NCBI GenBank assembly: GCA_028821475.1
Contig: JAPPGB010000047.1
Span: forward strand, 1,136 to 65,135
Direction of reading: 5' to 3'
DNA from: Spirochaetaceae bacterium
GTDB taxonomy: Bacteria > Spirochaetota > Spirochaetia > SZUA-6 > Bin103
DNA length: 64,000 bases
The notes under the pieces are model-generated. The model had not been told where the DNA came from. It made no database searches and saw only the letters and a program-made list of their open reading frames with translations. Below, one piece after another: positions 2,932-55,281 of this stretch; the stretch's first letter is position 1; every line of letters starts with the position of its first letter. A program made the translations under genes and the position numbers.

Positions 2932-5100
2932 ATGGCAACGACCAGCATACTGATCGTCGATCGGAGCCTGGACCGTGCACACCACCTGGAGCAGGGCGTT
3001 CGCGGCCTCGGCTACGCGGTGTGCGGCGTCGCAACCTGCGGCACGGAGGCGGTCGCGCTCGCCGGCGCCGGTGGAGCCGACTTGGTGCTGATCGACGCCG
3101 CGCTCCAGGGGGAGGTGTCCGGGGCGGACGCCGCCGCGCAGATCGGCGCCCGCCTTGCGATCCCGGTCGTGTTCGTCGTCGACTCCGCCGCCGGCGACGA
3201 ATCGGCCGCGCCCGACCTGCACCGGCAGGCGGCAAGCCGGCCGTCCGGGTACGTGCTGCGCCCCGTGCAGTGGCGGCAACTGGACCTGATCATCCGCACG
3301 GCGCTCGCCGCACGCGCCCGCGAGCGGGAGCTGACCGCCGAACGGCGCGCACTGCGGCATCGGCTCGACCGACTGCAGGAGCTCAACCGGCAACTCGAGT
3401 CCGGGTTCGACTGCCTCGACGATGCCGTGATCCTCTTCGATCGCGAGCGCAGGCCGCTGTTCCCCAACGCAGCCGCGCGGCTCCTGTGCGGAGACGCGAT
3501 ACTGAATCCCGACGCCGACCGGTGGCTCGACGAGTACGAACTGTTCGAGGTGGACGGGACGACGCCGGTCGATCTCGAGGAGGGTCCGCTCAGAAAGGCG
3601 CTGCGCAGCACGCAGGCGGTAACCGCCGACATGTTCGTTCGCAGAAGGAACCGCCCCGGGGGTGCCTACGTCAACGTCACGGCCAAGCCGCTCGGCGACC
3701 ATCCGGACGGTCCGCGCGGGGGGATGCTCGTCATCCGCGAGGTAACTCGGCACCGGGAGCGCGACGCGCAACTGCACGACACGCTCGCGGAGTTGCGCGA
3801 GCAGAACGAGTTGATCGACGCCGCGTTCAAGAGCATCAGCGATGGCATCGTGGTGGCCAACGCCGAGGGCATGTTTCTGTACGTAAACCCGGCCGCCGAG
3901 CAGATCGTCGGCATGGGACTCACCGACGCTCCACAGGAGCAGTGGTCGCAGCGGTACGGCGCCTACTATCCCGACCGTGTAACCCCCATGCCTTCCGAGG
4001 ACCTGCCGCTGCTGCGTGCCATCCGGCGCCGCGAGTCGGTGGACGAAGAGGACCTGTTCATCCGCAACCCGGGCCGGCCCGACGGCGTATACGTGCGCGT
4101 GAGCGCCCGTCCGCTGCTCAACGACGTCGGCGGCGTCCGAGGCGGCGTGATCGTGTTCCGCGACGTGACGGTACGCAGATTCGCCGAAGAAGCGCTGACC
4201 AACGCGTTCGCCGAGGGCCGGTCGGAGGTACTCGATACGCTTGTGCACAACATCGGTAATGCGATCACCAGCGTCACCACCGGCGTGGAGACGCTGCGCC
4301 GGACGCTCGCGAACGACCCGCTGCAACGCTCCCTGGCCGGGCTGGCCGCGGTGCTCGACGAGCACCGCGACCACTGGCTGGAGTTCCTCCGCGACGACGC
4401 GCGCGGCCGGCAAGTCCTGCCCTCCATTCTCTCACTCGCGGCACACTACGAGACGCGCGGCCGTGCGCTGATGAAGACCATCCAACGGGTGCGCAACCGG
4501 GCGTGGCGGATTGCCGACGTGATCCGCACCCAGCGCGAGGTCGACAGCGCCGGCATGGACCGCTCGAACGTCGACCTGAAGGGAGCGCTGCGGAACGCGG
4601 TGCGGGTGGTGAGCGAGTCGCTCGACCGGGCTCGGGTCCGCACCACCGTCGACTGCCGAGGGGCGCCGCGCGAGATTCGCATTCGCGAGAGCCGGTTTCA
4701 CCAGGCGCTGGTCAACCTGATCAAGAATGCCGTCGAGGCGATCGACGACCGCGGCGCCACGGACGGGCGCGCCCCGGCCCCCCGCATCCGCATCTGCGCC
4801 TGGTCCGGCGACCGGTACCTGAACCTGGAGGTTGCCGACAACGGCATCGGCATCCCAAGCACGGATTCCAGCTTGCTGTTCGCCCCCGGATACACCACCA
4901 AACGGAACGGCAGCGGGCTCGGTCTGCACTCGGTGGCGAACTTCGTTATCGGTTCGGGTGGCCGCATTCAGGCCCTGAGCGACGGCGCCGGCAAGGGAAC
5001 GACCATGCGCGTCATGCTGCCTCTCTCATCGGTGCTCGTCGCCGCGCCGCCGGCCCCCGCGAGCGCCGGACGGAACGGCCCGGCGCGGGAGCGGTCGTGA
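2932..5100 (+). CDS. Hybrid sensor histidine kinase (degenerate N-terminal receiver, PAS domains, HisKA-like H-box, HATPase_c)
   Basis: The N-terminus is receiver-like (ILIVDRS...LVLIDAAL). The middle is PAS-like. The H-box is LVHNIGNAITSV, and the N/G1/G2 boxes are LIKNAVEAI...DNGIGIP...GSGLGL. The start is placed at the ATG at 2932; the ORF-track frame opens at 2827. Confidence 0.75.
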   Translation: MATTSILIVDRSLDRAHHLEQGVRGLGYAVCGVATCGTEAVALAGAGGADLVLIDAALQGEVSGADAAAQIGARLAIPVVFVVDSAAGDESAAPDLHRQAASRPSGYVLRPVQWRQLDLIIRTALAARARERELTAERRALRHRLDRLQELNRQLESGFDCLDDAVILFDRERRPLFPNAAARLLCGDAILNPDADRWLDEYELFEVDGTTPVDLEEGPLRKALRSTQAVTADMFVRRRNRPGGAYVNVTAKPLGDHPDGPRGGMLVIREVTRHRERDAQLHDTLAELREQNELIDAAFKSISDGIVVANAEGMFLYVNPAAEQIVGMGLTDAPQEQWSQRYGAYYPDRVTPMPSEDLPLLRAIRRRESVDEEDLFIRNPGRPDGVYVRVSARPLLNDVGGVRGGVIVFRDVTVRRFAEEALTNAFAEGRSEVLDTLVHNIGNAITSVTTGVETLRRTLANDPLQRSLAGLAAVLDEHRDHWLEFLRDDARGRQVLPSILSLAAHYETRGRALMKTIQRVRNRAWRIADVIRTQREVDSAGMDRSNVDLKGALRNAVRVVSESLDRARVRTTVDCRGAPREIRIRESRFHQALVNLIKNAVEAIDDRGATDGRAPAPRIRICAWSGDRYLNLEVADNGIGIPSTDSSLLFAPGYTTKRNGSGLGLHSVANFVIGSGGRIQALSDGAGKGTTMRVMLPLSSVLVAAPPAPASAGRNGPARERS

Positions 5101-7860: not shown

Positions 7861-8186
7861 CGTCCGTCCTCGGGGCGTGCCGGCGGGCGCCGTGCGTCGC
7901 CCTCTATGGTCATCGGATTGCCGGCGGCGGCGAGGCCCCCGACGGCGATGGTGTTGCGGTCGATCTCCGTCAGCATGCGGCTCATGTCCTCGGCCGGGCG
8001 CGGGTCGTCGGTAAGCCCGGCGAGGTAGTCGAGGGAAGTGCGAAGTACGCGCGCGGCCCGGATGGCACGCGTGAATGACGGCGTGTTCTGACCCGTCTCG
8101 ATCATCGAGATCATCGACTGGTTGACGCCCATCGCCACGGCAAGGTCAGCCTGCTTGATCCCAAGCTGCCTGCGCCGCTCCGACAT
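7857..8186 (-). CDS. HTH XRE-family DNA-binding domain with LexA-type AAG cleavage-site region, N-terminal half of a split repressor
   Basis: MSERRRQLGIKQADLAVAMGVNQSMISMIETGQNTPS is an HTH_XRE. ...VGGLAAAGNPMTIEG matches the LexA VAAGEP cleavage region. The ORF stops 18 codons later, with a -1 shift into the S24 ORF. Confidence 0.6.
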   Translation of the reverse strand: MSERRRQLGIKQADLAVAMGVNQSMISMIETGQNTPSFTRAIRAARVLRTSLDYLAGLTDDPRPAEDMSRMLTEIDRNTIAVGGLAAAGNPMTIEGDARRPPARPEDGR

Positions 8187-8359
8187 ACGACCGCCGACCA
8201 TGCAAACCACTGTAATCGATCGCGGGGAAGAATCCAACACGCACCGGCAGGCACCAGGCAGGCACCACGGCACCACGAGCACGCCGACGTGCCCGGCCAA
8301 CGCCGGACGAGCGCACGCCGCTGGTGCCCGGTGCAAAAAGTCGCAGGAGGGGTTGACGT

Positions 8360-8402
8360 ATCACTATGGCTGATATTACCCATCTATATCAGTATGAGTG
8401 AT
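8360..8402. promoter_or_regulatory. Nested AT-rich palindrome (ATCACT..TGATAT..N9..ATATCA..AGTGAT): candidate operator in the divergent intergenic region
   Basis: Outer inverted repeat ATCACT (8360-8365) / AGTGAT (8397-8402); inner TGATAT (8371-8376) / ATATCA (8386-8391). TTGACG lies at 8353-8358. The palindrome overlaps the start codon of the giant gene and is markedly AT-rich in a 70% GC genome. Confidence 0.45.
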
Positions 8403-11400
8403 ATTCATGAGACGCAGTTCCACCCGGCCGCGCGACTGGCACGGCCACAGGCCTCACCCCGCGGGAGCCGGCGGCGGGCGGCGACGAAGCAGGTCCCGCT
8501 CCTGGTCGCGGTGCTGCTTGCCGCCCTGGCACTGGCGCCGGCGGCGGCGCAGGACACGGAGTCCACGGTCGCCCTCCTGAGCAACGTCGGCCAGCCCCGG
8601 CGATCTTCGGTGAACTTCCAGAGCCCTGAACGGGCGCAGGGGTTCACGACCGGGCCTAACCTCAAGGGCTATGCCCTCGCGAACATCGAGGTCGGCTTCA
8701 ACGCGGTAGAGGGCGGCGGTTCCGTCACGGTGTCGTTGTGGTCCGACAGCGGCGGCAAACCGGGAACCAAGCTGTTCGACCTGACCAACCCCTCCGGGTT
8801 CTCCGGGGCCGGGATGCACCGGTTCGCGGCGCCATCGAACACGGTGCTTGCGCCAAGGACCTCCTACCACCTGCACATGGCTCACGCCGGCAGTGAAGCG
8901 GAGCGATTGGCGACGTCGATCAAGCTCGTCAGCTCTTCGTCGGGGGTAGACGCAGGCGGCGCACCGGGGTGGGGCTTCGACAAGTGGCATTCGAAGCGCT
9001 ATTCCCATTTCAGCTACACCGAGGGGTCAGGCAAGGTCATGATCAACGTCAATGGCAGCACGGTACCGCCGGACCCCGCGATTCAGCTTGTCAGCAACCT
9101 CCAACAGACCCCGCCGTCATCGTCGGTCAACCTCCGGGGGACCCCCGAGCAGGCGCAGGGGTTCACCACCGGTACGGCCGGCGACGGCTACGTCCTGGCG
9201 CACGTGGCGATCGACTTCGACGACGTACGGGGCGGCGACTCCGTGGTCGTGTCCCTGTGGTCCGACAGCGGCGGCAAACCCGGACGCAAGCTGTTCGGCC
9301 TGAGTAACCCCGCCGGGTTCTCGGGCAGAGCGGTGCACCGCTTCACCGCGCCACCGAACACGGTGCTCGCACCAGGCACTACCTACTACGTGCACGTCAC
9401 CCATTCCGGTGACGCTACGGCCGTGGACGGGACTGCCATCGACCGCGCCTCGTCCGGCGGGGAGGATGCCGGCGGCATGGCGGACTGGAGCATTGCGGAC
9501 CGACACCACTATCGAGCCCGTCCCAACTTCCAGTTCAGCAACGGGGCCAGCGTGCTGTTGATCAAGGTGAGTGGGTCGACCGCGCCGGCGGGCAGCCTGC
9601 TGACCCCGACGCTGAAGCTCAGTGCCGGGACCATCGGCGAGGACGGCGGCGAGACGACGGTAACGGCGGTGTTGAGCCGCACCTCCAGCGTCGACACCAC
9701 GATCACCGTAAGCGCAACGCCGGTATCACCGGCAACCGACGACGACTTCACGCAAAGCGGCACGACGCTGACGATCCCGGCGGGGAGTACGACCAGCACC
9801 GGCACGGTAACCATCGCCGCGGTAAACAACGACGTCGACGCGGACGACAAGGAGGTGACGGTGTCGGCCACGGCGAGCGGCGTAGGCGTGGCGGCGCCGG
9901 CGGATCGGACGCTGACGATCACCGACGACGACACCCGTGGCGTGACGGTATCGGAGAGCACGCTGGCGTTCGGGGAAGGCGGCAGCGCGACCTACACGGT
10001 GGTGCTGGACTCGCAGCCGACGGCGGACGTGACGATCGGCGTGGCGTTCGCGCCGGGGACGGACGCGGACCTGACCGTGGACGAGGCGACGCTGACCTTC
10101 ACGGCCGGCGACTGGCGCGACGCGCAGACGGTGGAGGTACGGGCAGCGGAGGACGCGGACGACGTGCAGGACGTGGGGACGGTGCAGCACACGGTAAGCG
10201 GCGGGGACTACGGCGCCAACAGCGTGGCCGCGGCGGACGTTTCGGTCGAGGTTACCGACGACGAATCGCCGTCCACCACGGTGGTGCTGGCGGTGCAGCC
10301 GGAGGCGGTGGCCGAGGACGTGGGCGCCGGCGGCCGGGAGGTGACCGTGACCGCGACGCTGAACGCCGCGCCCCGCGCGACCGCCACCGAGGTGACGGTC
10401 TCCGTCGCTCCGGAGACGGCCACGGCCGCGGACTACGCGGCGGTGGCGGACTTCACGCTGACCATCGACGCGCAAGCGACGAGCGCGACCGGGTCGTTCA
10501 CGCTGCAGCCGGTGGACGACAGGTTGTCGGAGGGTGGCGAGACGGTCGCGGTGAGCGGCACGGCGGACTTGGCGGTGACCGGTACGACGGTGGCGATCAC
10601 CGACGATGAGGCCCCCCCGACGGTGACCCTGACGCTTGGTGCGCCGTCGATCAGCGAGCGCGGCGGCGAGACGACGGTGACGGCAACCCTCGACCACGGC
10701 TCCGCTGCCGAGACCACGGTCACGGTGACCGTGACGCCGGTGGCGCCGGCGGCGGGCGGCGACTACACGCTGAACGGCAGCACCCTGACGATCGCCGCGG
10801 GCAGCACGACCAGCACCGGCACGGTGACCATCGCGGCGGTGGACAACGCCGTGAACGCGGCGGACAAGCAGGTGACGGTGTCGGCGACCGCCACCAACAG
10901 CGTCGGCGTGACGGCCCCGGCGGACCGGACGCTGACGATCGCCGACGACGAAGTGAGCGCAGCCAAAGTGAATCCGGCGGGCGGGACCGAGCGCAATGAC
11001 CCGCCGCCTCCGCCACCCCCACCGCCACCGCCACCGCCGCGGGTGAGCATCGCGGATGCGAGCGCGCGTGAGGGCAGCGGCGTCATGGCGTTCACCGTGC
11101 GGCTCGGCGCGGCGACCGAGCAGCCGGTGACGGTGGCGTGGATGACCGCCGACGGCACGGCGGCGGCGGCCGCCGATTACACCGCGGTTACCGCCGGCAC
11201 CGTGACCTTCGCACCCGGACAGACCCGGCAGACGATCCGGGTAGATGTCCTGGACGACCGGCTGGACGAGTCGGACGAGACCTTCCTGGTACGGCTGAGC
11301 GACCCGGTGCACGCGCGGATAGAGTCCCCCGGCGGCGCCGCCACCGGGACGATCGTCGACGACGACGAGACCCCGGCGCTGACGATCGCCGATGCGCGCG

Positions 11401-13127
11401 CGGTCGAGAGCAGCGGCGAGATCGCGTTTCTGGTAACGCTGGAGGCGGCCAGCGGGCGGCCGGTGAGCGTTGCGTGCAGCACCGCGGACCAAACGGCGAC
11501 GGTGGACGAGGACTACCTCGGCGAGCGCGGCGTGCTGACTTTCGCGCCCGGGGAGACGCAGCGGACGATCCGCATCGTGGTGCTGGACGACAACCGGCAG
11601 GAGAAGGACGAGACATTCATGCTCGACCTGAGCGAACCGACCAACGCACGGATGGCGGCGGATGTGCTACGGGCCACCGGGACCATTGCGGATGACGACC
11701 GGCAGGTGACGGCGGCATGGCTGGCGCGCTTCGGGCGCACGGCAGCCAGTGAGGTGCTGGACTCGATAGTGGCGAGGATGGAAGGCGGCGCCGGCGCCGG
11801 CTCGTACATGACCCTTGCCGGCCAGCGTCTGCACGCCGTGCAGCCAGCGGCGGAGGGGGCGGATCAGCCGGCCCCGGTTGCCGTCGCCCACCGCACCATC
11901 AGCGACCGGGAGCTGCTGGCCGGGAGCGGGTTTCAGTTGGAGATTGCCCGGAGCGCGGCGCCGGAGGTCACCGCCGTGCCGCCGGGCGACGCCGCGGGCG
12001 CCCGCTGGACGGCCTGGGGCCGCGGCGCCACGACCTTCTTCGAGGGCCGGGATGCAGGGCTGTCGATGCAGGGCGAGGTGCTGACCGGCTCGTTCGGAAT
12101 CGACCGCGAGCACGGCGGGGTGCTGGCCGGCCTGGCGGTGGCGCACAGTGGCGGTGCCGGCGGCTACGCGGTGCCGGGCGGCGCCGCGGCGCCGGGCGGC
12201 GACGGTCGCCCGGCACGCGAAGGTGATCTGCGGGCAGCGTTGACCAGCGTGCACCCGTACGGACGACTGTCGCTGAACGAGCGCGTGCAGGTGTGGGGCG
12301 TGCTTGGCTACGGGATCGGCACGCTGGAACTGCGCGAAGCGAACCAGGCTGAGCGGGCCGGCATCGGCATGCTGCTGGGGGCATTCGGGGGGCGTGCGGA
12401 GCTGATGAACGGCGAGTGGAGCGGTGTCCGCCTTGCGCTGAAGACGGATGGCTACCTGTTGCGTATGACCTCGGAAGCGACCGCGGAGCTGCCGGCGGTA
12501 GCGGCGCACGTGAGCCGGCTGCGGTTGTCGGCGGAGGGCTCTACCGCCCTGGACGTCGGAGCGCGCCGCGTGCTGATGCCCTCCCTGGAGATAGGCGTAC
12601 GCCACGACGGTGGTGACGCGGAGACCGGGGCGGGTCTGGAGACGGCCGCCGCGCTGCGCTGGTTCGACCCCGCGTGGGGGCTGACGCTGGCGGCCAGCGG
12701 GCGGGTGCTGCTGACGCACCAGGATCGCGGCTACCGGGAATGGGGAGCCGGTGGTTCGCTGCATCTCGACCCGGGCGCCGCGGGGCGCGGCCCGGCGCTG
12801 ACCGTGAACTCCTCCTACGGCGCGCCCGGCGGCGCGGGAGTGCTCTGGTCGCTGCGCGACGCGACCGGCCTGGCTGCTAGCAACAGCGCCGGGGCGCCGG
12901 CGGGCCGCGTGGCCGCGCAACTGGGATACGGCCTGGAGCTGCCCGGAGGCGGCAGCGTGGTACCCTACGCCGGCGCCGAGTTGACCGAACGCGACCGCCG
13001 CACGTGGCGGCTGGGCAGCCGTTTCAGCCCGGGTGCGTTCGACGTGGCCGCCGAGGTTACCCGCCGGGACGCCGCCGGCACCGCTCCGATGCACAGCCTC
13101 ACCCTCAACGCGTCGGTGCGGCTGTAG
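8394..13127 (+). CDS. Giant secreted multi-repeat surface protein: signal peptide, 2 tandem novel ~140-aa domains, Ig-like repeats, poly-Pro linker, 2 Calx-beta domains, autotransporter-like C-terminal barrel
   Basis: Cleavable signal peptide (VPLLVAVLLAALALAPAAAQ). Two tandem repeats (VNFQSPERAQGFTTG...VSLWSDSGGKPGTKLF...NTVLAP vs VNLRGTPEQAQGFTTG...VSLWSDSGGKPGRKLF...). Repeated TLTIxAGSTTSTGTVTIAAV modules. P13 run at about 10990-11040. Two Calx-beta domains (DY..TFAPGQTRQTIRVDVLDD..DETF...ATGTI(V/A)DDD). The C-terminal about 470 aa have an alternating pattern reminiscent of type Va autotransporter barrels. Confidence 0.75.
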   Translation: MSDIHETQFHPAARLARPQASPRGSRRRAATKQVPLLVAVLLAALALAPAAAQDTESTVALLSNVGQPRRSSVNFQSPERAQGFTTGPNLKGYALANIEVGFNAVEGGGSVTVSLWSDSGGKPGTKLFDLTNPSGFSGAGMHRFAAPSNTVLAPRTSYHLHMAHAGSEAERLATSIKLVSSSSGVDAGGAPGWGFDKWHSKRYSHFSYTEGSGKVMINVNGSTVPPDPAIQLVSNLQQTPPSSSVNLRGTPEQAQGFTTGTAGDGYVLAHVAIDFDDVRGGDSVVVSLWSDSGGKPGRKLFGLSNPAGFSGRAVHRFTAPPNTVLAPGTTYYVHVTHSGDATAVDGTAIDRASSGGEDAGGMADWSIADRHHYRARPNFQFSNGASVLLIKVSGSTAPAGSLLTPTLKLSAGTIGEDGGETTVTAVLSRTSSVDTTITVSATPVSPATDDDFTQSGTTLTIPAGSTTSTGTVTIAAVNNDVDADDKEVTVSATASGVGVAAPADRTLTITDDDTRGVTVSESTLAFGEGGSATYTVVLDSQPTADVTIGVAFAPGTDADLTVDEATLTFTAGDWRDAQTVEVRAAEDADDVQDVGTVQHTVSGGDYGANSVAAADVSVEVTDDESPSTTVVLAVQPEAVAEDVGAGGREVTVTATLNAAPRATATEVTVSVAPETATAADYAAVADFTLTIDAQATSATGSFTLQPVDDRLSEGGETVAVSGTADLAVTGTTVAITDDEAPPTVTLTLGAPSISERGGETTVTATLDHGSAAETTVTVTVTPVAPAAGGDYTLNGSTLTIAAGSTTSTGTVTIAAVDNAVNAADKQVTVSATATNSVGVTAPADRTLTIADDEVSAAKVNPAGGTERNDPPPPPPPPPPPPPRVSIADASAREGSGVMAFTVRLGAATEQPVTVAWMTADGTAAAAADYTAVTAGTVTFAPGQTRQTIRVDVLDDRLDESDETFLVRLSDPVHARIESPGGAATGTIVDDDETPALTIADARAVESSGEIAFLVTLEAASGRPVSVACSTADQTATVDEDYLGERGVLTFAPGETQRTIRIVVLDDNRQEKDETFMLDLSEPTNARMAADVLRATGTIADDDRQVTAAWLARFGRTAASEVLDSIVARMEGGAGAGSYMTLAGQRLHAVQPAAEGADQPAPVAVAHRTISDRELLAGSGFQLEIARSAAPEVTAVPPGDAAGARWTAWGRGATTFFEGRDAGLSMQGEVLTGSFGIDREHGGVLAGLAVAHSGGAGGYAVPGGAAAPGGDGRPAREGDLRAALTSVHPYGRLSLNERVQVWGVLGYGIGTLELREANQAERAGIGMLLGAFGGRAELMNGEWSGVRLALKTDGYLLRMTSEATAELPAVAAHVSRLRLSAEGSTALDVGARRVLMPSLEIGVRHDGGDAETGAGLETAAALRWFDPAWGLTLAASGRVLLTHQDRGYREWGAGGSLHLDPGAAGRGPALTVNSSYGAPGGAGVLWSLRDATGLAASNSAGAPAGRVAAQLGYGLELPGGGSVVPYAGAELTERDRRTWRLGSRFSPGAFDVAAEVTRRDAAGTAPMHSLTLNASVRL

Positions 13128-15234: not shown

Positions 15235-16359
15235 TTACTCCTGCGCCAGCCAGGTGGCGTAGGGGTTGTCGCGGTTGGCGAGCGGGAAGGGCACGCGGGT
15301 GCCGAGGCGGTTGGACTCGTGCACGGCCATGATCATCTCCAGCGCGGCGCGCGAGTCGGCGCCGGAGGACACCTCGCGGACGTCGCGGTCCTCGTCGATG
15401 GCGGCCAGGAGCTCGTTCACGATCATCAGGTTGCTCGCCAGGCCGCTGTTCTGCCGCTCCCACTCGGGAATGCGGATGCGTTCCCACGGGCGGGTGTCGG
15501 TGTCCGGGATCCACAGGTCGTGACGGTGCAGGTACAGCTCGCCGCCCGGCGAATTGCGCACCGAGACGATGCCCCTGGTGCCGTACACTTCGAAGCCGAG
15601 GTGGCGGTTGTGGTCGTGGGCGTCGTCCGGGAAGCCCTGGAACGACTCGTAGTGGGCGGTGATGCCGTTCTCGAACACGTAGTAGGCGGCCACCCGGTTG
15701 CCGGCCAGCAGGCCGACGCCCTCGTCGCCTTCCTTGATGTCGTCGGTGGTGACCGGGCGCCCGTCCTGGGTCACGTGGCCGTGCGCCCAGGCGACGTCGC
15801 TGCCGGCCACGTAGCGGATGCCGTCCAGGATGTGGGTGCCGAGGATCATCAGGTCCAGCGATCCGGCGCGGTGGTCGCCCTTGCCGTGGCCGCGCATCAC
15901 CTGGATGTCGCCGATCTCGCCCGAGTCGACGATCTGCTTGAGGCGCTGCTCGTGGGCCGCGGCGCGCCGGTGCGCCACCACCACCCGCACGCCGTTCCGG
16001 TCGCACGCCTCCATCATGGCGTCGGCGTCGGCGAGGGTGGCCGCGAACGGCTTCTCGCAGAAGATGCCCTTGACGCCAGCCTCCGCGGCCGCGACCACCA
16101 TGTCGCGGCGCTGGTCGGTCCAGCGCGGGCTCACCGCCACCACGTCGAGTTGCTCGCGGGCGAACATGTCGCGGTAGTCGCGGTAATGGTTGTCGGTGCC
16201 GAACCGGCTCGCCGCCTCGGCGCCGCCGGCCCGGTCCGCGTCCGCGACCGCCACCACCGGGGTGCGGTCCAGGGCGGCGAAGGCGTCTCCGAGGCCATGG
16301 CCGTAGTTGCCGCGGCCGGTGGCGCCGATCACCCCGGCGCGCAGCGTTGCATCACTCAT
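15235..16359 (-). CDS. Gfo/Idh/MocA family NAD(P)-dependent oxidoreductase
   Basis: Rossmann N-terminus LRAGVIGATGRGNYGHG and the EKP motif (IFCEKPFA). Start placed at the ATG at 16359; the ORF track extends upstream, probably spuriously. Confidence 0.8.
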   Translation of the reverse strand: MSDATLRAGVIGATGRGNYGHGLGDAFAALDRTPVVAVADADRAGGAEAASRFGTDNHYRDYRDMFAREQLDVVAVSPRWTDQRRDMVVAAAEAGVKGIFCEKPFAATLADADAMMEACDRNGVRVVVAHRRAAAHEQRLKQIVDSGEIGDIQVMRGHGKGDHRAGSLDLMILGTHILDGIRYVAGSDVAWAHGHVTQDGRPVTTDDIKEGDEGVGLLAGNRVAAYYVFENGITAHYESFQGFPDDAHDHNRHLGFEVYGTRGIVSVRNSPGGELYLHRHDLWIPDTDTRPWERIRIPEWERQNSGLASNLMIVNELLAAIDEDRDVREVSSGADSRAALEMIMAVHESNRLGTRVPFPLANRDNPYATWLAQE

Positions 16360-16526: not shown

Positions 16527-16663
16527 TGGGGCAAGATCCGCGGGCCCGGTACCCCCGGGACGCCCGAGGCGGCGAAACCGATGCGCACGGGGCGCGTCGG
16601 CTGACCACCGTGGCCGTCCGGCGGGATTCGATAGCAGGGCGCCGCGGACGGGAGATTCCGGGT

Positions 16664-17869
16664 ATGAGTGCAGCCTTCACCCCATCCTTGAGCCGGCAGC
16701 AGCTTGCCGACTTTCACGACGACGGCTACCTGATCGTGCGCGACGCCCTGTCCGCCAAGGAGGCCGCCGACCTGCGCGGCGTGGTCCGGGAACAGGTGCA
16801 GCGTGAGGCCTATCCGCCGCGTCGTTCCTACCCGGAACCGGCCAAGTACACCGTCAGCGGCAACCGGATGGCGGAACCGGGATTGGCGGCGATTGCCGAG
16901 CATCCAACGGTGGTCGGGGCCGTGGAGTCGGCGCTCGGCGGCCCGGCGCACCTGACCGCGTCGGTCGCCTACCTGCGCACGCCGGGCGACAAGGGCGGCG
17001 GCGCCCACTCCGACTACAAGCGCTGGCGCCCGGTCGGCTCGTCCATGAACTGGGTGTTTGCCATCGTGCCGCTGAACGACTTCGATCCTTCGTTCGGTCC
17101 GTTCATGGTGTCGCCGGGGTCGCACAAGCTGCCGCGGGTCATCGACCCACGGGCGCACGTCCTGGACCTGACCGCTCCCGACCGGGAGCAACTGCCGCCG
17201 TTCATCGATCCGGAGTTGAAGGCCGGCGACCTGCTGGTGGTCAACGAGCATGTCTGGCACCAGGCTCCCGCCGGCACCACCAGTGAGGACCGCTGCGGCA
17301 TCTTCAACAAGTACTGCGCCGCCGACGCGCCGCCCGCGGCGGGCTACTACCCGTACAACCGGGCCGCCTTGGAGGCCCTGAGCGACGCCGGCAAGCGCCT
17401 GCTGCCGGTCTGTTTCGACCGCCCGCTCACCACCACCCGGCTGCTGATCGAGTGCCCCACCGGTTTCGACTCCAGATTCCTGTTGTGCCGCGAGGCAGAT
17501 TCGGATGCGTGGGAACTGCCCGGCGGCGAAGGCTGGGAAGAGAAATCGTCCGGCTGGGACGTCGGCTCACGGATCGGCTCGCTGCAAGCGCTGGTGCACG
17601 CCCAGCTTGGGTTGGACGTGCCCTGGATGTCCTACATCGAAGACTGGGTCGAGGAGGACGGCGTGTGCCGGGTATACGGTTATGCCGCCGACAAGGTGAA
17701 AGTCGATGCACTGGCGAACGGCACCTGCGACTGGTTTACGCCCGGCGAAATGCGCTACAATTTGGGCGACGCTCACCCGATATGCTGCGCGCTCGATGCC
17801 TGGGAGCGGACCGACATCGTCCGCGGCAAGGGCAAGGCGTGCAGCCAGAGCAAGCATCAATTCGAATAG
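16664..17869 (+). CDS. Phytanoyl-CoA dioxygenase (PhyH) family Fe(II)/2OG oxygenase fused to a C-terminal Nudix-like domain with degenerate Nudix box
   Basis: PhyH-like core: HSDYKRW...NWVFAIVPL...FMVSPGSHKL...HVWHQA. The C-terminal 150 aa (RFLLCREADSDAWELPGGEGWEE...) have Nudix-fold architecture but lack REx2EE. Confidence 0.7.
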   Translation: MSAAFTPSLSRQQLADFHDDGYLIVRDALSAKEAADLRGVVREQVQREAYPPRRSYPEPAKYTVSGNRMAEPGLAAIAEHPTVVGAVESALGGPAHLTASVAYLRTPGDKGGGAHSDYKRWRPVGSSMNWVFAIVPLNDFDPSFGPFMVSPGSHKLPRVIDPRAHVLDLTAPDREQLPPFIDPELKAGDLLVVNEHVWHQAPAGTTSEDRCGIFNKYCAADAPPAAGYYPYNRAALEALSDAGKRLLPVCFDRPLTTTRLLIECPTGFDSRFLLCREADSDAWELPGGEGWEEKSSGWDVGSRIGSLQALVHAQLGLDVPWMSYIEDWVEEDGVCRVYGYAADKVKVDALANGTCDWFTPGEMRYNLGDAHPICCALDAWERTDIVRGKGKACSQSKHQFE

Positions 17870-18052
17870 CGCCTGGTCGAATGATATCCTCATCGGCGTG
17901 GCCGGCCACCTGCGGGACCAGTGTCGCGAACCCCGTGCCCAGCGTCATGCGCTATGAGCGTCCGGACCGCCCGGCAAGGGTCGAGTGGCCGCATCACGGC
18001 TGATGGTGGCAAGTGGCGATGACCGTCATTGGTCGGTATATTGTGGTGGCAC

Positions 18053-18394
18053 ATGGACTCGACGACGCTTTCGAAAGTCAGGGATTTCGTGCAGGAGGCC
18101 CTTGCTGAGGGCCATCCGCGCGGTGGAGTAGCATTCGGTCCGATCGAGGTGCGGCGTACCTATGACGCTGACGATGGCTCTCCGTATCTCCGCATCGTGA
18201 TCGTCTTCGACGGCTCCAAGGATGACCTTGATGTCGCGTGGTTGGGTGGCATGCCAAGGCGACTGCTAGCGAGGCTCTCGGATGTGGGGATAGAAGACTA
18301 TCCCAACCTTTCCTACGTGTCTAGCGAAGAATGGGGCAGTGGTGTGGAGAAATGGCTGAGCACGTATCCCGAAGTCAACATTGAATCCTGCTGA
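18053..18394 (+). CDS. Hypothetical protein (first gene of a low-GC two-gene islet)
   Basis: 113 aa from the ATG at 18053. Local GC is about 52-55% versus about 70% in the flanks. It overlaps the next ORF by 14 nt. It has a GS-KDDLD segment faintly reminiscent of a minimal nucleotidyltransferase motif but is not canonical. Confidence 0.4.
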   Translation: MDSTTLSKVRDFVQEALAEGHPRGGVAFGPIEVRRTYDADDGSPYLRIVIVFDGSKDDLDVAWLGGMPRRLLARLSDVGIEDYPNLSYVSSEEWGSGVEKWLSTYPEVNIESC

Positions 18395-18863
18395 TCTGCT
18401 GACCGCCGCCAGAAACTCGATCTTGGGTCTCGGGGCGGGTCGCCCTTTGCAAGCTACGCTTCGGCGGGCAGTCAGCACGATTTACTATGCAGCATTCACT
18501 TGTCTGGCCAATGTCTGTGCCGACAAGGTGGTCGGTCAGTATCGCAGTCTCGACGACAGCGGGAAACGAGCGTGGGTCCAAGTCTACCGCGCCGTGGATC
18601 ATGGGAAGGCAAAGAACCGTTGCAAGAACAACCAAATCATGGGCCAGTTTCCCTCGGCAATCCGTGACTTTGCTGCGCCGTTCGTAGACCTGCAGTACGA
18701 CCGTACGATTGCGGATTATGTTCCCTACGAGAACTTCTTCAAGGCTGAGGTTGACATACTCGCCGATACCGCTGAAGGAATAATTCACCGCTTCATGGGT
18801 CTTCCATCCGGCGTGCTTCGCGCCTTCGCGGTGTACGTACTGTTCGACTCACGGAAGAACTAA
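18381..18863 (+). CDS. HEPN-like domain protein (second gene of the low-GC islet)
   Basis: 160 aa. The pattern AADLLTAARNS...RRAVSTIYYAAFTCLANV...KRAWVQVY...YDRTIADY resembles PF05168-type HEPN helices with an R-x4-DY motif. The call is made by eye and is uncertain. Confidence 0.45.
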   Translation: MNPADLLTAARNSILGLGAGRPLQATLRRAVSTIYYAAFTCLANVCADKVVGQYRSLDDSGKRAWVQVYRAVDHGKAKNRCKNNQIMGQFPSAIRDFAAPFVDLQYDRTIADYVPYENFFKAEVDILADTAEGIIHRFMGLPSGVLRAFAVYVLFDSRKN

Positions 18864-18969
18864 TCGTGCGTTTCGGTTGTTCGTGGCGGCTGCTCCGTCT
18901 CACGTTGGCGGCGGAATCGCGGCGCGGTGCAGGTGATGGAATTGTTTCCGACTTCCTTGGCGGACGATT

Positions 18970-19743
18970 GTGAAGCTCGGCATTCTGGACACGTTTCGGC
19001 TGGACGGGCGGGTGGCGCTGGTGACCGGGGCCAGCCGCGGCTTCGGCGAGGTGATCGCCAGCGCGCTGGCGGAGGCGGGGGCGTCGCTGGCACTGCTGGC
19101 GCGCGGCGAGCGCGTGCAGGAAGTCGCGCGCGAGCTGAGCGCCGAGCACGGGGTGGCGTGCCGCGCCTACCGGTGCGACGTGAGCGACCCGGCCGCGGTG
19201 GAGCAGGCGGTGGCAGGTGTGATCGCGGACTGCGGCGGGCTTCACATCGTGGTGAACAACGCAGGCATCAACATCCGCGGGCCGATCGAGGAGCTGAGCC
19301 TGGAGCAGTTCCGGCAGGTGCAGGACACCAACCTCACCTCGATGTGGCTGGTGTGCCGTGCCGCCGCCGGCCACCTGAAGGAGCAGGGCTACGGACGGGT
19401 GATCAACATCGGCTCGCTGCTGTCGGTGCTCGGCATGGCCGAGCGCACCCCCTACGCGGTCAGCAAGGGCGGCGTGCTGCAACTCACCCGCGTGCTGGCG
19501 CTGGAGTGGGCGCAGGCCGGCATCACCGTCAACTGCATCATCCCCGGCATGTTCGCCACCGAGCTGAACCTCCCGTTGCTCGGCGTTCCCGAGATCGCCG
19601 CCCGCGTGGTGGCGAAGGTGCCGATGGGGCGCTGGGGCGAGCCGCGCGAGATTGCGGGGCTGGCCCTTTACCTGGCCGGCGATGCCGCGAGCTACGTCAC
19701 CGGCGCCGCGCTGACCATCGACGGCGGCTGGAGCGTGCACTGA
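18970..19743 (+). CDS. SDR family oxidoreductase (classical short-chain dehydrogenase)
   Basis: TGASRGFG cofactor motif, NNAG, and a YAVSK active-site motif. GTG start. Its stop overlaps the next gene's start (TGAGTG). Confidence 0.85.
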   Translation: MKLGILDTFRLDGRVALVTGASRGFGEVIASALAEAGASLALLARGERVQEVARELSAEHGVACRAYRCDVSDPAAVEQAVAGVIADCGGLHIVVNNAGINIRGPIEELSLEQFRQVQDTNLTSMWLVCRAAAGHLKEQGYGRVINIGSLLSVLGMAERTPYAVSKGGVLQLTRVLALEWAQAGITVNCIIPGMFATELNLPLLGVPEIAARVVAKVPMGRWGEPREIAGLALYLAGDAASYVTGAALTIDGGWSVH

Positions 19744-21036
19744 GTGAGCACCCTGGACATCCTGTTCCTGGAGCCGTTCTACGGCGGCTCGCACCGCGAG
19801 TTCGCCGACGGCCTGGTGCAGCACTCCCGCCACCGGATCGATCTGCACACGCTGCCGGCGCGCTTCTGGCGCTGGCGGATGCGCGGCGCCGCGCTCCACT
19901 TTGCCCGCGCGGTGGCGCGCCCGGCGGACTACGACCTGCTGCTGGTCACCGACCTGATGAACGTGGCCGACCTGAAAGCCCTGTGGGGAGCGGAGTGTCC
20001 GCCGATCCTCCTGTACGTGCACGAGAATCAACTCAGCTATCCGAAACCGGAGGGCGAGCAGCGCGACTTTCAGTTCGCCTTTACCGACATCGCCTCGGCA
20101 CTGGCCGCCGACGTGGTGGTGTTCAACTCCCGCTACCATCGCGACGCCTACTTCGCGGTGCTGCCGGAGGTGTTGCGGCGCATGCCGGAATACGAGCCGG
20201 CGTGGATTCCGGACGCGCTGGCGGCCAAGGCGCGCGTGCTGTACCCCGGCTGCCGATTGCCGGCGCCGTCCGTGGAACCGGCGCCGGGCGGCGCGACCGC
20301 GGTGCCGACTGTCGACCGCGGCCGTGCAGCCGAGCCTTGGTCGGCGCCGTCCTCGGAGAGCATGGGTCCGCCGGCGGCGTCCCCGCCGCCCGAGTCCCGC
20401 GCCGGCGGGGACGCCGGAGCAGCGGGACGGCAACCCGGCGCTGCCGACATCGCGTCAACGGTTGCGGGACCGGCACGTTGCGCGGTGAGGCCTGGAACAC
20501 CCCTGATGATATGGAACCATCGCTGGGAGTTCGACAAGCAGCCGGCGGCGTTCTTCGCCGCCCTGCGCAGGGTGCAGCGGGCAGGGGTGGCGTTCGAGGT
20601 GGCGTTGCTCGGCGAGAACGCCCAGTACGTGCCGCAGGAGTTCATCGCCGCGCGCAAATGGCTCGGAGAAAGGGTGGTACAGTACGGCTATCTGCCGAGC
20701 CGGGCGGCATACCTGGAGTGGCTTGGCCGCGGCTCGGTGGTGGTGTCGACCGCCATCCAGGAGAACTTCGGCATCTCGGTGGTGGAGGCGGTGGCGGCGG
20801 GCTGCCATCCGTTGCTGCCCAACCGGCTCGCCTACCCGGAAGTGATCCCGGCGGCCTTCCACGAAGAATGCCTGTACGACGGCGACGAGGCCCTGGCCGA
20901 CCGGTTGATCGCCCTGCTGTCGAGCCCGCCGGTGAAGTCGCCGCCGGGACTGGCCGCGGCCATGCGGCGCTACTCGTGGGCCTGCCTCGCTGAGGAATAC
21001 GACAACCTGTTCGACGCATGGCGGCGAATGGGCTGA
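19744..21036 (+). CDS. DUF3524/GTDC1-like glycosyltransferase (homolog of eukaryotic tRNA-queuosine mannosyltransferase) with internal low-complexity insert
   Basis: The N-terminus ILFLEPFYGGSHREF...LLYVHENQLSYP...QRDFQFAF...ADVVVFNS matches the GTDC1 N-domain. The C-terminus is GT1-like. An Ala/Pro/Gly-rich insert of about 80 aa sits between the two domains. Confidence 0.7.
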   Translation: MSTLDILFLEPFYGGSHREFADGLVQHSRHRIDLHTLPARFWRWRMRGAALHFARAVARPADYDLLLVTDLMNVADLKALWGAECPPILLYVHENQLSYPKPEGEQRDFQFAFTDIASALAADVVVFNSRYHRDAYFAVLPEVLRRMPEYEPAWIPDALAAKARVLYPGCRLPAPSVEPAPGGATAVPTVDRGRAAEPWSAPSSESMGPPAASPPPESRAGGDAGAAGRQPGAADIASTVAGPARCAVRPGTPLMIWNHRWEFDKQPAAFFAALRRVQRAGVAFEVALLGENAQYVPQEFIAARKWLGERVVQYGYLPSRAAYLEWLGRGSVVVSTAIQENFGISVVEAVAAGCHPLLPNRLAYPEVIPAAFHEECLYDGDEALADRLIALLSSPPVKSPPGLAAAMRRYSWACLAEEYDNLFDAWRRMG

Positions 21037-22247: not shown

Positions 22248-22475
22248 ATGGACTATCGAGAGATCATCACTATTGAGCCGGGGAAGCGTGGGGGCAAGCC
22301 ATGTATTCGGGGGCTCCGCATCACCGTCTACGATGTTCTCGAATACTTGGCGTCAGACATGACTCGGGAAGAGATACTCGCCGATTTACCAGATCTTACA
22401 CCGGATGACATCAAGGCATGTCTATCTTTCGCGGCTGACCGAGAGCGCCGATTCGTCTCGGTACCGGCCGAGTGA
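22248..22475 (+). CDS. DUF433 domain protein (putative antitoxin)
   Basis: 75 aa, ...RGGKPCIRGLRITVYDVL..., with its stop overlapping the DUF5615 start. Local GC is lower than the flanks. Confidence 0.8.
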   Translation: MDYREIITIEPGKRGGKPCIRGLRITVYDVLEYLASDMTREEILADLPDLTPDDIKACLSFAADRERRFVSVPAE

Positions 22476-22804
22476 AGCTGCTCTTCGACCAGAATCTGTC
22501 GCCGCGATTGATCGACCGCCTTGCGAGTATGTATCCCGAATCCGCACATGTTCGGGATCTTGGTCTACACCGAGCCGTGGACCGGCAGGTGTGGAAACAC
22601 GCAGGTGAGAACGGTTACGCCATTGTCTCGAAGGACTCCGACTTCCATCAGCTGAGCTTTCTGTACGGACACCCGCCGAAGGTGGTTTGGATCCGGAGGG
22701 GTAACTGCACCACTAATGAAATCGAGGCGATACTGCGCGAGTTCTCCACACGGTTGGCTGAGTTCGACGCGGACGAGGCCGCATCGTACTTGGCAATCTC
22801 GTAG
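22472..22804 (+). CDS. DUF5615 (PIN-like/Mut7-C) protein, putative toxin partner of DUF433
   Basis: 110 aa, MKLLFDQNLSPRL...VSKDSDF. This is the canonical DUF433-DUF5615 pair arrangement. Confidence 0.75.
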   Translation: MKLLFDQNLSPRLIDRLASMYPESAHVRDLGLHRAVDRQVWKHAGENGYAIVSKDSDFHQLSFLYGHPPKVVWIRRGNCTTNEIEAILREFSTRLAEFDADEAASYLAIS

Positions 22805-22881: not shown

Positions 22882-25098
22882 CTACCGGCTGCCAGCCGGC
22901 GAACCGGTTGCGGTCACGAACAGGGTGGCGACGCGCCAGTCGAGCACGGCGCCGAGGCGGTTTTCGAGTCCGCGGCGCAGGGCCGCGACTGCCGCGGCGG
23001 AGACGCCGGCGGTCAGCAGCACGTGGGCGTAGGAAGTGGCGGGAACCTGCGCGCCGTTCGGGAACCAGCGTTCCAGGAGGGTGCGCGTCACTGCCAGCCG
23101 GCCCGGCTGTTCCACGATCTCGGCGGTCAGGCCGGTGACGTGCGGCGCCAGGGCGGCCTCGACTTCGGCGCCGGTGAGTGCCGGGCGGGCGCCGTAGTGC
23201 GCTTCCTCGGCGGCGGCGACGGCGGCGCGGTCGGTCTCGTCCAGCCCGTCGAGGTCCAGCACCTCGTGCAGCCGCGGAGCCCGTTCCGGCAGCGGCTCGG
23301 CCAGCACCAGGCGTCCGCCCTCGGTCAGGGCGCCGGCGGCGGCCAGCACCAGCGCTTGCCCACCGTCCGCCCGCCACACGCCGCGGCCCACCACGGCGTC
23401 GAAGCACACCGCCGGGTCGATCTGCGCCGGCTCCGCCACCAGGGTGGGCTGCATGGCGGCGGGCAGGGCGGCCAGTTGCTCGCGCACGCCCTTGGCCTCC
23501 GGCGGCGCCAGCGCCCACACGCCGCCCTCCGGGCAGCGGCGCAGCAGTTCGAAGGTGAGCAGGCCGCTGCCGAGCGCCAGGTCCAGTACCACGCCGTGGC
23601 GCTGCAGGCCGGCCGCCGCCACGATGCGGTCGCGCTCATCGGCCAGCCGCCCGGCGGCGTCGGACAGCGCCCGCTCCAGCCAGCGGTCCAGGTCGCGCTG
23701 CACGTCCTTGCCGGCGTTGGTCAGGATCTCGCCGCCTTGCTCGGTGCCCTCCCAGGCGGCCGCCAGGTTGGCTTCGCGGCGGCGCGCCACCTGGTCGCGG
23801 ATGGCGCGCTCGTGGCCGGTGTCGCCGGGCTGGTAGAACACCCGCCCCTGCAACTCCGACGGCAGGTACTGCTGCGCCACCCAGTGGTCGGTGAAGGCGT
23901 GCGGATACTGGTAGCCGGCGCCGTGGCCGAACCCCTCGGCATCGCGGCTCCCGTCGCGCAACGACGACGGCACCTGCGCCTCGCGCTCCGCCTCCACCGC
24001 GCGCAGCGCGTCGAAGAAGCCCAGGGTGCTGTTGCTCTTCGGCGCCGTGGACAGGTACAGCGCCGCCTCGGCCAGGTGGAAGCGCCCCTCCGGCAGGCCC
24101 ACGTAGTCGAACGCGGCGGCGCAGGCGGTCACCACGCCGATCGCCGCCGGGTCCGCCATGCCGATGTCCTCGGACGCCAGGATCAGCATGCGCCGGAACA
24201 GGTAGCGCGGATCCTCGCCCGCGTACACCATGCGCGCCATCCAGTACAGCGCCGCGTCGGGATCGGAGCCGCGCACGCTCTTGATGAACGCGCTGATGGT
24301 GTCGTAGTGGGCGTCGCCCTCCTTGTCGTACAGCACCGCGCGGCGCTGGATCGACTCCTCCGCCACCAGACGGTCGACGCGCACCACGCCGTCCGCGCCG
24401 GCCGGCGTGGTGGTGACCGCCAGTTCCAGGGCGTTGAGCAGGCTGCGCGCGTCGCCGTTGGCCACGTTCAGCAGGTGCTCCATCGCCTCCTCGCTTACCT
24501 CGGAGCGGTAGCCTCCCAAACCGCGCTCGGTGTCGGCCAGCGCCATCCGGGCCACCCGCTCCAGCTCCTCGCGCCCGAGCCCCTGGAGCTGGAAGATGCG
24601 GCTGCGGCTCACCAGCGGCTTGATCACCTCGAAGTAGGGGTTCTCGGTGGTGGCGCCGATCAGCACGATGGTGCCGTTCTCGACACTCGGCAGCAGCGCG
24701 TCCTGCTGCGCCTTGTTCCAGCGGTGCACCTCGTCGATGAACAGGATGGTGTGCTGGCCGTGCAGGTCGCGCGCCTCGCGCGCCGCGGCGATCGCCTCGC
24801 GGAGCTGCTTCACCCCGGCGAGCACCGCGTTCAGCGCCGTGAAGCGGGCGCGGGTGGTGCCGGCGATCACCTGCGCGAGGGTGGTCTTGCCGGTGCCGGG
24901 CGGCCCGTAGAAGATCAGCGACGAGAGCTGGTCTGCCTGGATCGCGCGCCGCAGCAGCCGCCCCGGCCCGACGATGTGGTCCTGGCCGACGAATTCGTCC
25001 AGCGTGCGCGGCCGCATGCGCGCCGCGAGCGGCGCGCCGCTCGCCTGCTCGGCCGCGCCGCGGGCCTGAAACAGGTCGCGATCTTCAGCTCTCGCCAT
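22882..25098 (-). CDS. rarA: Replication-associated recombination protein A (RarA/MgsA AAA+ ATPase) fused to a C-terminal class I SAM-methyltransferase-like domain
   Basis: Walker A GPPGTGKTT, Walker B LFIDEVHR, and the RarA C-terminal GYQYPHAF...QQYLP. A further about 290 aa follow with the VLDLALGSG motif I and motifs II/III of Rossmann methyltransferases. Confidence 0.8.
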   Translation of the reverse strand: MARAEDRDLFQARGAAEQASGAPLAARMRPRTLDEFVGQDHIVGPGRLLRRAIQADQLSSLIFYGPPGTGKTTLAQVIAGTTRARFTALNAVLAGVKQLREAIAAAREARDLHGQHTILFIDEVHRWNKAQQDALLPSVENGTIVLIGATTENPYFEVIKPLVSRSRIFQLQGLGREELERVARMALADTERGLGGYRSEVSEEAMEHLLNVANGDARSLLNALELAVTTTPAGADGVVRVDRLVAEESIQRRAVLYDKEGDAHYDTISAFIKSVRGSDPDAALYWMARMVYAGEDPRYLFRRMLILASEDIGMADPAAIGVVTACAAAFDYVGLPEGRFHLAEAALYLSTAPKSNSTLGFFDALRAVEAEREAQVPSSLRDGSRDAEGFGHGAGYQYPHAFTDHWVAQQYLPSELQGRVFYQPGDTGHERAIRDQVARRREANLAAAWEGTEQGGEILTNAGKDVQRDLDRWLERALSDAAGRLADERDRIVAAAGLQRHGVVLDLALGSGLLTFELLRRCPEGGVWALAPPEAKGVREQLAALPAAMQPTLVAEPAQIDPAVCFDAVVGRGVWRADGGQALVLAAAGALTEGGRLVLAEPLPERAPRLHEVLDLDGLDETDRAAVAAAEEAHYGARPALTGAEVEAALAPHVTGLTAEIVEQPGRLAVTRTLLERWFPNGAQVPATSYAHVLLTAGVSAAAVAALRRGLENRLGAVLDWRVATLFVTATGSPAGSR

Positions 25099-55184: not shown

Positions 55185-55281
55185 GACGGATCGTACCACA
55201 CTCTCCCGGGGCAGGACCAGACCAGACCAGATCAGACCGCCTTGCCGAAGTCACCGGTGGTTGCGGCCGGCGCCCTTGGGT

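Follow-up and report, generated by a model that had tools for sequence, protein, structure and literature searches.

A PhyH-type oxygenase fused to a predicted Nudix-fold domain with a degenerate Nudix box in a Spirochaetaceae bacterium and in bacteria of other phyla

The 64,000-nt stretch of DNA analysed here (the window; GenBank assembly GCA_028821475.1, contig JAPPGB010000047.1, positions 1,136 to 65,135 of the forward strand) originates from a Spirochaetaceae bacterium and harbours at positions 16664-17869 a gene for a cytoplasmic two-domain enzyme of 401 amino acids (aa). We found that its N-terminal part is an oxygenase of the PhyH family, which is followed by a domain with a predicted Nudix fold and a degenerate Nudix box. 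The fusion is obligate and its C-terminal domain is under selection. Both folds and the reuse of the Nudix fold as a binding module are known already; new are the combination with an oxygenase and the divergent, unannotated Nudix-like family. With moderate confidence and by analogy, we propose that the Nudix-like domain may be a non-hydrolytic recognition module for the substrate of the oxygenase.

The assignment of the N-terminal domain (residues 1 to about 250) to the Fe(II)/2-oxoglutarate (2OG) oxygenases of the PhyH type is based on sequence and structure searches. The Pfam model PF05721 (PhyH) matches residues 17-210 with its positions 1-211 of 213 (E=8.5e-19; 69.1 bits at a cut-off of 22). 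Comparison of the family profile with the PDB revealed SnoK (1.2e-15) and EctD (5.5e-13), and further SnoN, leucine hydroxylase, MysH, PAHX, KanJ and PHYHD1. The domain has a double-stranded beta-helix core extending to approximately residue 219, followed by two short helices. In line with this, a Foldseek search with a good full-length AlphaFold2 model (mean predicted local distance difference test score, pLDDT, of 92) returned exclusively PhyH-family oxygenases, including SnoK, MysH and EctD, among the top 50 PDB matches, with E of about 1e-14 to 1e-12 and a template modelling score, TM(target), of 0.5-0.7; model and search together point to the PhyH-type double-stranded beta-helix fold.

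The catalytic residues could be placed on their equivalents in SnoK, SnoN and EctD: H115 and D117 of an HxD motif and H199 of a W-H motif correspond to the iron triad, and R210 to the arginine which binds the C5-carboxylate of 2OG. All conservation counts given here refer to 251 full-length relatives with 32-92% identity. H115, D117, H199 and R210 are constant in 251/251 of them, as is K119, and the HxD motif is part of an invariant block, HxDYK(R/P)(W/Y)RPVGSS. Judged from these residues, the N-terminal domain has everything that a PhyH-type oxygenase requires for catalysis: the 2-His-1-Asp triad H115/D117/H199 and R210. With SnoK/SnoN, EctD, MysH, HygX, KanJ, PHYHD1 and PAHX it has in common the fold, the HxD...H triad, the 2OG arginine and an N-terminal helix-strand start of the type L(S/T)xxQ...GY(L/V). 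It differs in that none of the solved or described members has a C-terminal Nudix-fold domain, in its identity of only 14-24% to any solved member, and in the active-site block HxDYKRWRPVGSS, which is specific to the fusion family. By its sequence, the 401-aa protein is a PhyH-family member outside all characterised subfamilies; in NCBIfam, the EctD equivalog TIGR02408 scored 24.3 bits at a cut-off of 336.5, and the methylphosphonate hydroxylase model was far from its cut-off (17 vs 500 bits).

The C-terminal domain (residues ~255-385) escapes the current family models. With the last 141-161 aa alone, neither Pfam nor NCBIfam yielded a match, even at E<=10, so that PF00293 (NUDIX) stayed below its gathering score in the window protein, and weak Pfam NUDIX matches were present in four of 25 relatives (best E=0.0012). 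When a profile made of close homologues only was compared with the PDB, no Nudix protein was found. With a diverse profile, to which distant members had been added, Nudix proteins made up 24 of the 27 PDB matches at E<10, headed by the ADP-ribose pyrophosphatase 3o8s (E=7e-4), aligned on a strand and the sequence W-x-LPGG. In a search with the full-length profile, the Nudix protein YfcD matched positions 259-382 (E=0.009). Alignment of the diverse profile by hhalign to single Nudix sequences, namely a Nudix protein encoded in the window and E. coli MutT, was not significant (P ~0.04), but MutT was aligned in the right register.

The structure models point in the same direction. A shallow alignment (at least 67% identity) resulted in a poor model (model 1, pLDDT 42.5), while the AlphaFold2 model mentioned above, made with a diverse alignment including distant members, reached a predicted TM-score (pTM) of 0.91. 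In both models the elements of the C-terminal domain follow the order strand-strand-strand, helix, strand-strand, helix. When model 1, in which the N-terminal domain is unfolded and which therefore served de facto as a C-domain query, was submitted to Foldseek, all 50 top matches were Nudix folds, among them the non-catalytic C-domain of MUTYH, NrtR with ADP-ribose and AraR with arabinose. With the good full-length model only PhyH proteins appeared in the top 50, and the viral library yielded one named Nudix match. Resting on the profile and on the fold search with model 1, we consider the predicted Nudix fold of the domain established; its alpha/beta/alpha architecture places it in the Nudix homology clan. 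It does not belong to an ordinary Nudix family, since a profile search with the C-domain in 1.84 billion representatives retrieved only 79 proteins. The distant full-length matches of this search (387-432 aa) have the same two-domain layout.

Of the Nudix signature, only the beginning of the box is retained. [LFMVY]PGG is kept in 240/251 members, with P286 in 249/251. We mapped the remainder of the box by hand, anchored on the helix I304-L315 followed by G316-L317, which corresponds to the catalytic helix of Nudix hydrolases. The loop between LPGG and this helix is 7 residues longer than the canonical one, and the equivalent of REUxEE reads A309-L-V-H-A-Q314 in the window protein. Position 310, that of the first Glu, is Glu in 0/251 members; at position 313 (middle Glu) Thr is found in 105/251 and Glu in 75/251, and at position 314 (last Glu) Gln in 196/251 and Glu in 10/251. 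The Nudix box GX5EX7REUXEEXGU in strict or relaxed form, or REx2EE, was detected in none of the 251 members. As a positive control, a canonical Nudix gene in the same window (55276-55770, plus strand) has an intact box (GGVEAGEAIEAAARREIAEEAGF) and matches Pfam NUDIX with E=1.2e-17. Since the metal-binding REx2EE glutamates are gone in every member, the C-domain cannot be a canonical Nudix pyrophosphatase. With hydrolases such as MutT, ADP-ribose pyrophosphatase, Ap4A hydrolase, RppH and YfcD it shares the alpha/beta/alpha sandwich, the strand with W-x-LPGG at the box entry and the helix-Gly-hydrophobic exit of the box, in contrast to the missing box, the longer loop and the blindness of Pfam NUDIX. 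A sequence-only reading of the window had described a phytanoyl-CoA-dioxygenase-like oxygenase followed by about 150 aa of Nudix architecture with replaced catalytic glutamates. All three parts of this description agree with our results; the strings it quoted are present in the translation (RFLLCR at 271-276, WELPGGEGWEE at 283-293, GL at 316-317), and the outcome it had named as fatal, a C-terminal domain without Nudix fold in structure prediction, was not seen.

The loss of the box is not accompanied by decay of the domain. Seven of its residues, W321, D327, R336, W357, W380, R387 and G388, are constant in 251/251 members, and in the conserved tail (residues 386-401) G390 is present in 248/251. 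The ratio of nonsynonymous to synonymous substitution rates (dN/dS) was measured with two equally long relatives and amounts to 0.27-0.28 in the C-domain and to 0.13-0.14 in the PhyH domain; ungapped values against Latescibacterota genes were discarded because indels misalign the C-domain. Thus, both domains are under purifying selection. The two-domain protein occurs in full length in more than 250 protein clusters with 32-92% identity, which, together with this selection, places the fusion far beyond chance. The sequence-only reading had recommended a search for the same fusion in other genomes, and it is indeed present in hundreds of proteins.

No genuine stand-alone copy of the C-domain was found: the inspected short matches either start within the PhyH domain or result from split genes, and stand-alone proteins were therefore rejected. 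One JGI entry for a fragment is named MutT/NUDIX. Another short match is a 224-aa open reading frame (ORF) at 3001-3675 of locus L091, a contig with 4.6x coverage, which joins the N-terminus of a single-stranded DNA-binding protein (SSB) to the Nudix-like C-domain in a phage-like gene run (HTH_17, Rad52-like, SSB). Either the assembly is chimeric here, or a mobile element has inserted into the fusion gene.

A scan of one genome per species yielded 280 relatives. Among the best 80 of these 280, nearly all are metagenome-assembled genomes (MAGs) labelled Poribacteria, Latescibacterota or Spirochaetia, and two are labelled only "uncultured bacterium". By our reading of the isolate names, many of the MAGs are derived from sponges or corals. 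The closest relative of the window protein (90% identity) is encoded in a Spirochaetia MAG. The median identity between the three phyla is 71-77%, compared to 82% within Poribacteria (loci L001-L080, gene at ~8001-9206), and in a quick neighbour-joining tree the Latescibacterota-labelled sequences L069, L075 and L077 are located among divergent Poribacteria sequences. This unusually high cross-phylum identity suggests transfer among co-resident symbionts or extreme constraint; taken together with the tree, it suggests inter-phylum transfer or mislabelled bins. While the close full-length homologues have 67-92% identity to the 401-aa protein, a distant clade (32-50%) consists of MAGs of Acidimicrobiia/Actinomycetota and Pseudomonadota, where the protein is annotated just as "phytanoyl-CoA dioxygenase family protein".

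Full-text literature searches revealed no description of a PhyH-Nudix fusion. The section of Kamke et al. 2014 on the PhyH expansion in Poribacteria gives no account of this architecture, and public annotations name only PhyH. This bears out the remark of the sequence-only reading that such a fusion is not known to have been described.

What could a Nudix fold without catalytic box do in an oxygenase? Precedents are the C-domain of MutY/MUTYH, NrtR and AraR of Bacteroides, in which a Nudix fold without box is fused to another functional domain, as in the family described here, and binds a ligand: 8-oxoG in MutY-C, ADP-ribose in NrtR and L-arabinose in AraR. The partner domains differ, being a DNA glycosylase or winged-helix DNA-binding domains there and an oxygenase here, and a sequence relationship to our C-domain is undetectable beyond the generic Nudix profile. 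From the analogy that these domains bind a ligand for the neighbouring domain we derive the proposed role as recognition module. The same analogy makes plausible the suggestion of the sequence-only reading that the domain may bind a nucleotide or CoA moiety and so deliver the substrate to the oxygenase. The Nudix-like domain would pack rigidly on the oxygenase and would hold a part of the substrate or close the pocket around it; the Fe(IV)-oxo centre would then hydroxylate or demethylate a defined C-H bond. The high pLDDT of the linker and the pTM of the full-length model indicate a fixed inter-domain geometry, with the Nudix-like domain rigidly joined to the oxygenase in the prediction; in the C-terminal tail pLDDT falls from 84 to 66. 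Near the iron site basic residues are accumulated, the invariant K119 and, in most members, R120/R122, and R387 in the tail is invariant as well. These residues suggest that the small-molecule substrate is probably anionic; candidates are phosphorylated compounds, compounds resembling nucleotides or nucleosides, and sugar acids.

Several points weigh against such a recognition role. The invariance of the residues may just as well be due to folding or to contacts between the domains or between the subunits of a dimer. The assignment of the Nudix fold rests partly on a model with a pLDDT of only 58-85 in the C-domain. The motif of CoA-specific Nudix proteins (NuCoA/UPF0035, PROSITE PS01293), which we take to be LLTxR[SA]x3[RK]x3Gx3FPGG, was detected in 0/251 members. 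A conserved neighbouring gene pointing to a substrate class was not found in the loci compared, and a sequence relation to the nucleoside demethylases tested by others is undetectable beyond the general PhyH fold.

These demethylases deserve attention. In a 2025 study, PhyH enzymes of the PHYHD1/FJS group were shown to be 2'-O-methyl nucleoside demethylases, and enzymes from Poribacteria and Fadolivirus were among those rescuing growth on 2'-O-methylcytidine (PMC12709175). Nucleoside-type substrates thus have a precedent in the PhyH family. Among viral proteins, our model matched best the fold of a PhyH protein of Fadolivirus, which need not be the enzyme of that study. The PHYHD1/FJS demethylases are single-domain proteins of ~260-290 aa, as opposed to the two-domain 401-aa protein, and the fold of human PHYHD1 (3obz) is no closer than that of other PhyH enzymes. 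Membership in this group was rejected on the basis of the sequence, the best local BLASTP alignment with the tested Poribacteria enzyme having E=0.047 over 31 residues; the sequence of that enzyme stems from a supplement read by machine and is possibly not free of errors.

It is tempting to speculate further that the Nudix-like domain holds the substrate by a nucleotide or nucleoside moiety, and that the family constitutes a hitherto unknown class of oxygenases for nucleotide-linked or modified-nucleoside metabolites, although we consider this more specific proposal doubtful. If true, the reaction could be, for example, the hydroxylation or demethylation of a modified nucleoside or nucleotide or of a nucleoside diphosphate sugar. 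The sponge clade would then represent a horizontally shared trait, the use of a host- or holobiont-derived compound, and the overlap with Amidohydro_2 genes in distant genomes (see below) would echo the pairing of thymine 7-hydroxylase with isoorotate decarboxylase in pyrimidine salvage.

Among the alternatives to a recognition module, the one that survives best is a purely structural domain, a scaffold, lid or oligomerisation unit which takes the place of the C-terminal helices by which single-domain PhyH proteins close their active site. We regard this as rather unlikely, albeit worth taking seriously. The PhyH core ends at approximately residue 219, and typical PhyH proteins add 30-60 pocket-shaping residues there: the alignment ends at residue 245 of 279 in SnoK and at 267 of 310 in EctD, and the C-terminal helices are located at the cavity opening (PMC12709175). 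The predicted rigid packing (pTM 0.91) would suit such a function, and Trp and Gly account for several of the invariant residues, while D327 and R336 possibly form a pair between neighbouring strands, as expected for a core or an interface. However, a simple lid needs neither a complete fold of 130 residues nor a dN/dS of ~0.27 with seven invariant positions over 32-92% identity, and the LPGG motif of the Nudix substrate loop is kept in 240/251 members.

A role as allosteric sensor, in which a metabolite other than the substrate (ADP-ribose, a nucleotide or a sugar) switches the oxygenase, appears improbable to us. NrtR and AraR, which use the box-less Nudix fold as effector-binding module for ADP-ribose and arabinose, respectively, are among the best fold matches (E=5e-5 to 9e-5), but these values fail to separate sensor-type from catalytic Nudix folds. 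Moreover, NrtR and AraR regulate DNA binding, and no enzyme is known to be regulated in this way. The rigid inter-domain geometry of the model would also be easier to reconcile with a shared active site than with a switch.

Still much less probable is a bifunctional protein, in which the Nudix-like domain hydrolyses a (pyro)phosphate bond via E292/E293/D299/D327 and so releases or prepares the substrate. D327 is invariant family-wide, and the sponge-symbiont clade conserves acidic residues near the loop, in W291-E292-E293 and at D299. However, E292, E293 and D299 are not conserved in the clade with 30-45% identity, REx2EE is absent from all members and even Ex2EE followed by xG is present in 1/251 only, and the helix which would provide the metal ligands in the window protein is without any acidic residue. 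Finally, an artefactual fusion, be it by mis-assembly, by a frameshift between two genes or as a pseudo-domain in decay, is practically out of the question, since, even if some database entries carry the halves as separate ORFs, 251 independent full-length members from many assemblies and phyla refute it together with the purifying selection on both domains and the inspection of a split case, in which overlapping PhyH and C-domain ORFs point to assembly frameshifts because the neighbouring UPF0261 gene on the same contig is also called in three pieces.

The recognition of this family is important for several reasons. PhyH oxygenases are hugely expanded in sponge symbionts and account for more than 1.9% of poribacterial genes (PMC3909097). 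Almost none of these sponge-symbiont enzymes has a known substrate. The subfamily described here is single-copy-like and extremely conserved across the MAGs of Poribacteria, Latescibacterota and Spirochaetia, and it offers a tractable entry point, as its substrate class could come to light when ligands are screened against the Nudix-like domain. Further, the short list of non-hydrolytic Nudix binding modules would gain an example linked to an enzyme, with a domain that is missed by the current Pfam and NCBIfam models.

Table 1. Positions of the fusion gene, its domains and motifs in the window, and of selected neighbouring genes
Feature	Position	Strand	Basis
Complete gene, PhyH oxygenase with degenerate, predicted Nudix-fold domain; 401 codons and stop	16664..17869	+	ORF, translation, full-length homologues, AlphaFold2 model
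GGGAG, Shine-Dalgarno-like, 9 nt 5' of the ATG	16650..16654	+	Read from the sequence
PhyH-type Fe(II)/2OG oxygenase domain, residues 1 to ~250	16664..17413	+	Pfam, PDB profile, Foldseek
H115-x-D117, iron-binding motif	17006..17014	+	Aligned with HxD of SnoK and EctD
H199, distal iron-binding His (W-H motif)	17258..17260	+	Aligned with second His of SnoK and EctD; 251/251
R210, predicted 2OG C5-carboxylate-binding Arg	17291..17293	+	Aligned with Arg of SnoK, SnoN and EctD; 251/251
Divergent, predicted Nudix-fold domain without Nudix box, residues ~255-385	17426..17818	+	PDB profile, YfcD alignment, Foldseek, models
L285-P-G-G288, start of box, sole retained piece of the Nudix signature	17516..17527	+	Aligned with LPGG/FPGG of 3o8s and 3id9
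Helix I304-L315 and G316-L317, equivalent of Nudix catalytic helix	17573..17614	+	Helix in models; mapping by hand
Family-specific invariant C-domain stretch (W321, D327, R336, W357, W380)	17624..17806	+	Each 251/251
R387-G-K-G390 motif in conserved tail	17822..17833	+	R387, G388 251/251; G390 248/251
SDR gene, then QTMAN homologue	18970-19743, 19744-21036	+	Adjacent stop and start
Amidohydrolase genes (PF04909 Amidohydro_2 or Amidohydro_1/3) in Acidimicrobiia-type genomes	L081 5818-6987, L087 4403-6004, L088 4829-6004		

The coordinates of the complete gene in Table 1 include the stop codon. The ATG at 16664 corresponds to the start in the homologues, the N-terminus MSAAFTPSLS of the window protein being aligned with MSATFTPTLS and similar sequences. 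Together with the GGGAG site this argues that 16664-17869 is the real gene, rather than a longer, TTG-initiated ORF from 16307. Its G+C content of 66-70% is in line with that of the surroundings.

Clustering of the ORFs in 80 loci and 7 distant contexts revealed no universal partner gene. In the window, the divergent neighbour (15235-16359) encodes a Gfo/Idh/MocA oxidoreductase, for which the sequence-only reading had considered a shared pathway. This idea found no support: in the closest relative (L001) the gene is ~4.6 kb away, and no adjacent counterpart exists in the Poribacteria or Latescibacterota loci.

In the Spirochaetia relatives, genes for a short-chain dehydrogenase/reductase (SDR) and a QTMAN-like glycosyltransferase are located 3' of the fusion gene, a synteny confined to that lineage; in L004 the SDR gene starts 32 bp downstream. 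In the window the glycosyltransferase is a bacterial homologue of the tRNA-queuosine alpha-mannosyltransferase (QTMAN_N, PF12038, E=1.4e-62, and a GT1 domain), and a link of the pair to nucleoside modification is conceivable. The pair is separated from the fusion gene by a stretch (17900-18900) with a G+C content of 57-61%, compared to ~70%, and with two overlapping orphan ORFs on the plus strand, 18029-18394 and 18381-18863 (121 and 160 aa), for which no Pfam or PADLOC match was found. This stretch has the appearance of a small insertion; it is present in L001 and went undetected in L002-L004.

In the Poribacteria loci, the genes nearby include a GNAT-like and a UPF0261 gene, another PhyH-like gene and one for a membrane protein resembling phosphatases; these labels were given by eye, except for GNAT and UPF0261, which have Pfam hits in L090. 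In three of the seven distant contexts (L081, L087 and L088), an amidohydrolase gene directly borders on the fusion gene at its start or overlaps with it there and is probably co-translated with it. Isoorotate decarboxylase, which is paired with the 2OG oxygenase thymine 7-hydroxylase, belongs to PF04909, and the gene arrangement is a possible lead to the substrate class. A TauD gene precedes the fusion gene in 1/7 distant contexts, and luciferase-like monooxygenases are encoded nearby in 4/7. Such variable and catabolism-rich neighbourhoods suggest that the enzyme serves in scavenging or catabolism and is not part of a dedicated biosynthetic cluster.

Some other genes of the window are worth mentioning. 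The ORF at 8289-13127 (plus strand) encodes a protein of 1612 aa in which Calx-beta repeats (Pfam E=1.5e-39) are accompanied by 13 consecutive prolines and an extended C-terminal region rich in Gly and Ala; it may be an adhesin that is secreted or exposed at the cell surface. The gene at 22882-25098 (minus strand) encodes an AAA+ protein of the MgsA/RarA type, in which Pfam domains extend to residue 438 and are followed by an unannotated C-terminal extension of ~300 residues. Close to it, at 22472-22804 (plus strand), a small DUF5615/PIN-like protein (E=3.9e-36) is encoded, which is 100% identical in L001 and is a probable toxin of a toxin-antitoxin pair.

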